A stretch of DNA of 40,443 nt from IMG/VR virus record IMGVR_UViG_2778261635_000003; one strand, given 5' to 3'. The translations under genes were made by a program, and so were the position numbers. Numbering within the stretch: position 1 is the stretch's first letter; every line of letters starts with the position of its first letter. The notes beneath the pieces are model-generated. The model searched no databases. It was not told the origin of the DNA and saw nothing but the letters and a program-made list of their open reading frames with translations. Below are positions 501 through 734 of the stretch, piece by piece. The DNA comes from a virus. Taxonomy: Duplodnaviria; Heunggongvirae; Uroviricota; Caudoviricetes.

Positions 501-603
501 GCAAGGCAACTAAGCCTGCATTAATGCCAACTTTTAGCGCACGGCTCTCTCCCAAGAGCCATTTCCCTGGACCGAATACAGGAATCGTATTCGGTCTTTT
601 TTT
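501..603 (+). ncRNA. sdsR: SdsR (RyeB)-like small RNA; antisense partner RyeA expected on the opposite strand
   Basis: Sigma-S-like -10 (CTATTCTTAA) at 487-496; sequence GCAAGGCAACTAAGCCTGCATTAATGCC... matches my memory of SdsR; internal hairpin GGCTCT/AGAGCC; terminal hairpin CCGAATAC/GTATTCGG plus T-run at 572-603. Confidence 0.55.
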
Positions 604-637
604 AATTGTATTTAAAATCAATTGGTTACAAACGTCT

Positions 638-657
638 CCCCGAAATTCCCCGAAATT
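638..657. repeat. Tandem direct repeat CCCCGAAATT x2 in the putative attL arm
   Basis: Two perfect adjacent 10-bp copies between the sRNA terminator and the integrase 3' end. Confidence 0.5.
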
Positions 658-734
658 TACTCGAATTTCTGTATTCCGGTCTTTTTTGGTTATATCACAA
701 CCAAAATACATTTAACAATCCATTTACGTTAAAA

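Follow-up and report, generated by a model that had tools for sequence, protein, structure and literature searches.

Probable integration of a lambda-type prophage in the SdsR terminator of E. coli, with a conserved near-copy of the sRNA 3′ end in its P′ arm

Positions 501-734 of the window (the whole 40,443-nt stretch of viral DNA analysed here) very probably represent attL of a ~42-kb lambda-type prophage that sits in the terminator of the sRNA gene sdsR. The prophage integrated by Campbell-type site-specific recombination into the Rho-independent terminator of sdsR (ryeB). The phage side of the junction also carries a near-copy of the SdsR 3′ end, which is a phage att element and, in most related arms, is conserved at a fixed distance from the core. 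The features at the left end of the window are as follows.

1-342, plus strand: yebY coding sequence, host flank (open reading frame; annotated as yebY in matching genomes)
463-607, minus strand: retained body of the antisense RNA RyeA/SraC (Rfam RF00101, 179 bits)
489-494, plus strand: sdsR −10 element TATTCT, host DNA, intact (the same hexamer is swapped for CTCGAG in primers PM_SdsRF/PM_SdsRR; PMC6610125)
504-603, plus strand: SdsR/RyeB sRNA (Rfam RF00111, 118.1 bits; four-way att alignment), with the 5′ part to ~577-588 from the host and the 3′ stem arm and U-tract supplied by the phage
569-597, plus strand: SdsR terminator hairpin with an 11-bp stem and a 7-nt loop, U-tract at 598-603 (terminator scan)
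573-604: common att core, in which attP equals attB except at 577, 589 and 598
580-586: putative 7-bp overlap AGGAATC, the hairpin loop, flanked by the inverted core-type half-sites CCGAATAC and GTATTCGG (lambda-type core geometry and crossover limits)
605-734: P′ arm of attP, phage DNA (E. coli homology to the window stops at 604; contiguous with the P arm in PP818812.1)
616-628, plus strand: putative H′-like IHF site AATCAATTGGTTA (perfect consensus, between core and arm repeats)
638-668, plus strand: three tandem putative arm-type repeats, CCCCGAAATT at 638-647, CCCCGAAATT at 648-657 and TACTCGAATTT at 658-668
671-687, plus strand: near-copy GTATTCCGGTCTTTTTT of the C′ half-site and T-run, present in attP, conserved P′-arm element
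735-1811, minus strand: int, lambda-type tyrosine integrase of 358 aa (Pfam domains; alignment to lambda Int structures)
1777-2064, minus strand: xis, excisionase, overlapping the start of int (Pfam Exc PF07825, 52 bits; annotated as excisionase in RefSeq)

The sRNA gene was recognized over its full length, the Rfam SdsR_RyeB model being matched from position 1 to 100 of 100 with 118.1 bits against a gathering score of 38; the 3′ end of the RNA, at 587-603, reads GTATTCGGTCTTTTTTT. The −10 element at 489-494 is identical to the K-12 element that was mutated in PMC6610125, indicating that the window retains an apparently intact σS-type sdsR promoter. The int stop codon lies 131 bp beyond the SdsR 3′ end (open reading frame 735-1811, minus strand). 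A preliminary description of this DNA had reported an SdsR-like terminator ~130 bp from the end of int, together with the near-copy and a tandem repeat, and all of these sequences were recovered at the coordinates given above.

To define the junction we compared four att sites, taking the window as attL, strain PEC422 as attR, the empty strain H2 as attB and PP818812.1 as attP. The attR and attP sequences come from close relatives and not from the window's own strain; PEC422 matches window 1-1900 at 100% identity and the remaining prophage at 94-99.7%. The core reads ttgacgaaaACAGGAATCGTgTTCGGTCTcTTTTTAtctg in attR (PEC422), gaccgaatACAGGAATCGTgTTCGGTCTcTTTTTAtctg in attB (H2) and ttgacgaaaACAGGAATCGTaTTCGGTCTtTTTTTAattg... 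in attP (PP818812.1), where it is followed by the entire window 605-734. Positions 578-588 (ACAGGAATCGT) are identical in attL, attR, attB and attP, and around the core common to all four the flanks are reciprocal: attL has the left flank of attB and the right flank of attP, and attR the left flank of attP and the right flank of attB. The polymorphic positions follow the same pattern, with host T577 joined to phage A589/T598 in attL, and phage A at 577 joined to host G589/C598 in attR. Since 578-588 is shared by the four sites and the polymorphisms on its two sides are reciprocal, strand exchange must, on this alignment, have been confined to 578-588. This segment contains the terminator loop and lies 16-26 nt from the last SdsR nucleotide, 603. 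The preliminary description had placed attL within 604-734, whereas the alignment puts the core at 573-604 and the exchange at 578-588. The terminator hairpin at 569-597 also serves as the attB inverted repeat, and from the lambda-type geometry we infer that its stem arms act as the inverted core-type Int sites and its loop AGGAATC as the overlap region.

With a crossover within 578-588, attL consists of the 5′ stem arm and loop from the host, followed by the 3′ stem arm and U-tract from the phage. About 28 bp of the phage attP (ACAGGAATCGTATTCGGTCTTTTTTTA) copy the sdsR 3′ end, and with this phage-supplied end sdsR is rebuilt with two substitutions, G to A at 589 and C to T at 598. The original sdsR 3′ arm, the ryeA promoter and pphA are displaced by ~41.8 kb, to attR. 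The prophage of PEC422, ~41.8 kb in length, lies between sdsR and pphA with its right end adjoining pphA, and for the window's own strain the predicted attR reads ...GACGAAAAC-AGGAATC-GTGTTCGGTCTCTTTTTATCTG, then pphA. The four-way pattern agrees with the earlier proposal of a prophage junction formed by site-specific integration into the sRNA 3′ end, and the phage A589/T598 in attL bears out the suggestion that a phage-supplied copy restores sdsR. Two checks proposed with it also gave concordant answers: the shared core is present at the right junction (attR of PEC422), and the empty site in strain H2 holds a single copy of the sRNA 3′ end and no second one.

All 5,426 complete E. coli genomes matched window 1-604, and the match extended further only where the same integrase was present. 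This int was found at this site in 228 of them (~4%), and the empty-site query was intact in 5,189.

The right end of the prophage was sought in the window itself, where direct-repeat and mismatch searches found no second core in the 40 kb. The window stops in the end of an insertion sequence at 40391-40443 (TAGACTGGCCCCCTGAATCTCCAGACAACC...), which we take to be IS2-like and which disrupts a gene for tail-fibre assembly. Other E. coli prophages are homologous only up to ~40385-40389, thousands of genomes match the last ~55 nt only, and no complete genome reproduces the junction with the insertion sequence near 40390. Because the insertion sequence end interrupts the tail-fibre assembly gene and prophage homology stops there, the right end of the prophage is not in the window, and attR was therefore taken from the related prophage of PEC422.

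Several other features of the prophage were recorded. RNAs above the Rfam gathering score were RalA (antitoxin of RalR), DicF, sok (beside hokD), isrK and a C4 antisense RNA with its a1/b1 target, at positions 2169-2347, 7826-7877, 14653-14802 and 16975-17173. The early region is Rac-like (recE, recT, kilR, ralR), and the tail module is of the contractile type with a pin invertase. The record used as attP, PP818812.1, is named 'Actinobacillus phage vB_Apl-pPE4' and carries the host label Actinobacillus pleuropneumoniae; its int/att region is 98-99% identical to that of E. coli prophages, and its attP core matches the 3′ end of E. coli sdsR exactly. The label looks doubtful, and the record may be an induced E. 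coli prophage.

The integrase and the arm between it and the core have a lambda-like layout. Pfam domains Arm-DNA-bind_1 (PF09003, 29.7 bits, cutoff 22), Phage_int_M (PF22022) and Phage_integrase (PF00589) were detected in Int, which aligned over its full length to the lambda Int structures 5j0n/1z1g (E = 3e-72) and is 39% identical to lambda Int and 41% to HK022 Int. The catalytic R, K, H-x-x-R, H and Y were aligned (TGQRR, KTG, FHEIRSL, LLGH, and the Y in MYLDE), their lambda counterparts being R212, K235, H308/R311, H333 and Y342. The P′ arm (605-734) would offer an IHF site and, for binding by the N-terminal domain of Int, three arm-type sites in helical phase. The IHF consensus WATCAANNNNTTR matched twice in the 40-kb window, one match being that at 616-628, and IHF-like sites occur at comparable places in related arms. 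The motif CYCGAAWTT matched five times in the window, three of these at 638-668; further arm-type motifs (CCTGAAAT, CCCGAAAAT and CCCGAAAAA) lie in the P arm of the PEC422 attR locus (L001 4930-4985), with equivalents in the attP of PP818812.1 (L003). The CCCCGAAATT tandem is best read as a pair of arm-type Int-binding sites, and the overlap region, the IHF site and the arm sites are putative assignments made from the lambda layout. The tandem had been noted before and is indeed present; it belongs to the P′ arm of the phage attP. The IHF consensus at 616-628 and the Exc-family xis at 1777-2064 are sequence indications that recombination may depend on IHF, and its direction on Xis.

Compared with lambda itself, the window shares a heterobivalent Int with three domains and the catalytic residues, an adjacent xis overlapping int, arm-type sites in the P arm as well, and the same order of core, IHF site and three arm-type sites beside the int 3′ end (C-O-C′, H′, P′1-P′3 in lambda attP). 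It differs in that its core is the SdsR terminator, in contrast to the gal-bio attB of lambda, and its attB inverted repeat is an RNA terminator stem; its arm motif is of the CGAAAT type, unlike that of lambda; and an additional conserved core-like half-site follows the third arm site. The P′ arm is ~65 bp longer than that of lambda.

The 3′ end of sdsR/ryeB is a published integration hotspot, to which the prophage of the window adds a case in E. coli. The preliminary description had called the locus a reported insertion hotspot, which is how the ryeB 3′ end appears in PMC7380047 and in PMC3603311 (Bobay 2013), the latter counting it among known sRNA integration targets; "RyeB" is also used as a site name in the nomenclature of islands (PMC10111431). 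The account of phiW104 in PMC7380047, citing Balbontin 2008, gives the last 23 bp of ryeB as its att and states that lysogeny alters the 5′ part of ryeA, with ryeA down and ryeB up. In Yersinia, a prophage whose att measures 27 bp is located between an integrase gene and a gene of the yebY family (PMC12653942). We found no description in the literature of a lambda-type att at the sdsR site of E. coli. As in the published hotspot, the junction of the window falls in the region of the last ~23 bp of the sRNA (16-26 nt from its 3′ end), and the prophage, as placed in PEC422, separates the sRNA gene from pphA.

The insertions of phiW104 and of other elements at Salmonella ryeB resemble the window, within what the sources say of them, in that the target is the ryeB 3′ end internal to ryeA, the 5′ part of ryeA is replaced and the hotspot is used repeatedly; for phiW104 the likeness is one of target, and its arm could be of the lambda type found here or of the P2-like type. 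The host here is E. coli, and the int of the window shows ~73% DNA identity to its Salmonella relative; Salmonella elements with the arm layout of the window are present in the data set (for example OK490361.1). Integration of phages and islands into tRNA and tmRNA 3′ ends (Campbell; Williams 2002, as cited in PMC3603311) likewise uses a structured RNA gene whose stem is the symmetric core, with a phage replacement 3′ end, an intact gene at one junction and a partial duplicate at the other. The target here differs in being the terminator of an Hfq-dependent sRNA at a bidirectional locus, where restoring sdsR necessarily truncates ryeA and separates the co-transcribed pphA.

The same core is used by at least 33 lambda-type arm families and by a P2-like class in IMG/VR. 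Members of the latter (L124, L129, L132, L164, L193, L196, L199 and L200) have a P2-like N-terminus. The integrases of this class, typified by L124/L164, share with the window an identical core and the same sdsR junction, whereas their Int is essentially unrelated, being ~20% identical to that of the window (blastp E ≥ 0.01), and their arms carry a pair of IHF-like sites but lack both the CGAAAT repeats and the near-copy. Distinct integrase lineages have thus converged on the SdsR terminator. Since the P2-like class recombines at this core with no near-copy in its arms, the element belongs specifically to the lambda-type clade and is no by-product of targeting sdsR.

The near-copy at 671-687 shares 16 of 17 bases with the SdsR 3′ end and contains one inserted nucleotide (an extra C), an indel that hid it from an ungapped search allowing 3 mismatches. 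An equally good alignment to the 17-mer arose in 3 of 20,000 dinucleotide-preserving shuffles of 605-734 (p ~1.5e-4); the near-copy is beyond chance. It is present with the CCCCGAAATT repeats in the attP of PP818812.1, where the core is preceded by the P arm rather than by host DNA, and a 128-nt query spanning it had both pieces matched in 228 of 228 E. coli lysogens among the complete genomes.

To follow the element across related arms we scanned IMG/VR twice, with the near-copy 18-mer and with the core alone (unbiased), which gave 161 unique sequences of core plus right flank. Lambda-type arms were present in 124 of the 161 and formed 33 clusters, with Ints 48-99% identical to that of the window; a locus search in genome contigs had returned only two near-identical loci, and the diversity is drawn from these pattern scans. 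Counted from the overlap start, the three repeats have their CGAA begin at +60, +70/71 and +81/82 in nearly all 33 families. When the 154 bp beyond the core were compared with the C′ half-site (GTATTCGGTCT), the top match fell at +91 to +93 in 23 of the 33 clusters and at +81 in one further cluster with one repeat fewer (24/33 in total). Conservation was 0.59 bits per column in the spacer between core and repeats, 1.14 in the arm repeats, 0.93 in the near-copy and 0.43 downstream of it. The distance between near-copy and core is constant whether the int stop abuts the near-copy or lies 48 bp off, as in the window. The element is conserved across Ints down to ~59% identity and degenerate in the most distant families (Int identity ~48-54%); one family (L245) has a perfect 17-nt copy. 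It ignores the family-specific prefixes of the arm repeats (CCCC, CCTC, ATCC, TGTC, TTAT) and looks like a core half-site rather than a fourth arm site; its ATTCG is the inverse of the CGAAT in the repeats.

Some variants depart from this layout. The L125 and L195 families carry a further partial core copy (TTCGGTCTC or TTCGGTG) at +48, just before the first repeat, and their +91 element is degenerate. In the attL of L204 (IMG/VR) the deletion comprises exactly the 84 bp between the core copy and the near-copy, with loss of the IHF site and all repeats, consistent with recombination or slippage between the two copies, which should lock the prophage in place; this allele was not among the best 25 complete-genome matches, where it would rank first. 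L228 and L239 keep triple arm repeats of the CGAAAT type with cores apparently at the ends of protein-coding genes, which suggests that the Int clade was retargeted to other sites. Such relatives were few, and their sequences too similar or too degenerate for co-variation of near-copy and core to be read. Matches of the 18-mer in L059 and L078 lie in coding DNA, are unrelated and were set aside as chance. L143 and L044 (IMG/VR) have two cores or two near-copies 6-8 kb apart, flanking short elements with truncated int-size open reading frames; we considered 6-kb tandem satellites and rejected them, the loci being rather degraded or tandem insertions at the sdsR hotspot, of a kind described for Salmonella.

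The reading that we favor, with low confidence, is that the near-copy is an auxiliary Int-binding half-site of a core-type-like kind or an architectural element of the intasome. A more far-reaching proposal, for which the chance seems to us well short of even, is that it works as a fifth Int-binding element, not described before, in the P′ arm across the clade of sdsR-targeting lambda-type integrases. The C′-like half-site at +91 to +93 would then lie one helical turn beyond the third repeat, where an Int protomer bound to the arm could occupy it in cis as a core-type site and tune the assembly of the intasome or its directionality. Alternatively it could act as a pseudo-core: recombination between it and the true core would remove the arm sites and ground the prophage, which is the situation of the single variant L204. 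Its decay in distant families might perhaps be unexpected for a strictly required core-type site.

The main alternative, which we hold to be possible without favoring it, is a non-functional relic in attP, an ancestral duplication of the C′ side that was inherited by the integrase clade and originated, for example, in a tandem integration followed by aberrant excision. The C′ arm was copied together with its T-run, that is, with terminator sequence amounting to more than a half-site, the family of the window has the extra C, and the element decays progressively as Int diverges; the perfect copy in L245 and the partial copy at +48 in another family suggest that such duplications recur. A relic, however, would not readily account for conservation in the near-copy above that of both the spacer and the downstream sequence among Ints down to ~59% identity, nor for a core distance that stays constant whatever the position of the int stop. 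The preliminary description took the region for what was left of the original sdsR 3′ end or of a previous insertion in the host, with the core within 604-734, a view that attP, attR and attB refute. Although the near-copy is real and non-random and in some contigs the hotspot does hold tandem arrays and degraded elements, the 3′ end of the original, G589/C598 type sits at attR beside pphA, the empty site has a single copy, and near-copy and repeats stand in the attP of a phage-genome record behind a P arm. In most arm families, moreover, the element keeps a constant place, +91 to +93 counted from the overlap start, and E. coli genomes cease to match the window at 604 rather than at 687.

Two further readings assign the region a role in transcription. 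It is unlikely, if conceivable, that it holds a phage promoter and the 5′ end of a chimeric RyeA-like antisense RNA running across sdsR in the lysogen, with TGTTAA-N14-TGATATAAC on the minus strand at 717-689 and a start near AAAAAGACCGG. An extended −10-like motif (TGATATAAC, minus strand 697-689) would start transcripts at the near-copy, the spacing of TTAACA-N14-TGATATAAC is conserved in the closest families of the window with a variable spacer sequence, and an extended −10 (TGtTATGGT) likewise characterizes the native promoter of ryeA; PMC7380047, in its account of phiW104, has lysogeny modifying the 5′ portion of ryeA and lowering its transcription. Yet the hexamer TATAAC lacks the conserved final T, the motif is conserved in the closest families only, the int stop abuts the near-copy in many families and leaves no room for a promoter, and the position of the near-copy follows the core and not int. 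A promoter scan of 400-900 found none, which is a weak negative as the same scan misses the proven ryeA promoter. That the near-copy is a second terminator, stopping SdsR read-through that enters the prophage antisense to int, seems highly improbable: it does end in a T-run after a GC-containing segment, and SdsR read-through is documented in K-12, but a complementary arm is absent upstream, folding of 604-734 gives no significant structure (z = −0.8 and −1.3 for the two strands), the SdsR hairpin was the sole find of the terminator scan, and several families have AAA in place of the T-run. The near-copy has no significant hairpin on either strand and is therefore not a terminator.

The predicted consequences for the host concern SdsR, RyeA and pphA. 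The rebuilt SdsR has a fold energy of −32.5 kcal/mol, equal to the native value. For RyeA, the −10 element TATGGT, identified by means of the mutagenic primers of PMC6610125, lies to the right of the crossover (L002 3149-3154), and the −10 element and start site are 38-50 bp right of the SdsR 3′ end, which puts them at attR in PEC422, ~41.8 kb away. The native promoter and the first ~55-65 nt of ryeA are not joined to the body at 463-607, and attL carries the RyeA body without its native promoter. The displaced promoter (L001 5140-5180, PEC422 attR) points into the phage P arm and then runs antisense to pinE. Transcription from attR could yield a truncated RyeA′ that keeps ~26 nt of complementarity to the 3′ end of SdsR. 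In K-12, pphA is co-transcribed by read-through from the sdsR promoter (PMC6610125), and lysogeny should uncouple the two, now ~42 kb apart. By analogy with what is reported for phiW104 in Salmonella, lysogeny would remove or replace the native RyeA promoter and so raise SdsR. SdsR is a σS-dependent regulator and has been described as the toxin of an SdsR/RyeA toxin-antitoxin pair; lysogeny could therefore shift SdsR dosage.

Together, these results show that in ~4% of complete E. coli genomes sdsR is a host/phage chimera, and they place the actual boundary of the prophage at 578-588, within the terminator of SdsR. Their value is mainly one of annotation and interpretation, as an effect of lysogeny on SdsR/RyeA has already been proposed for Salmonella. 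The conserved core-like half-site in the P′ arm is the only possibly new element, and it may interest those who work on intasome architecture.
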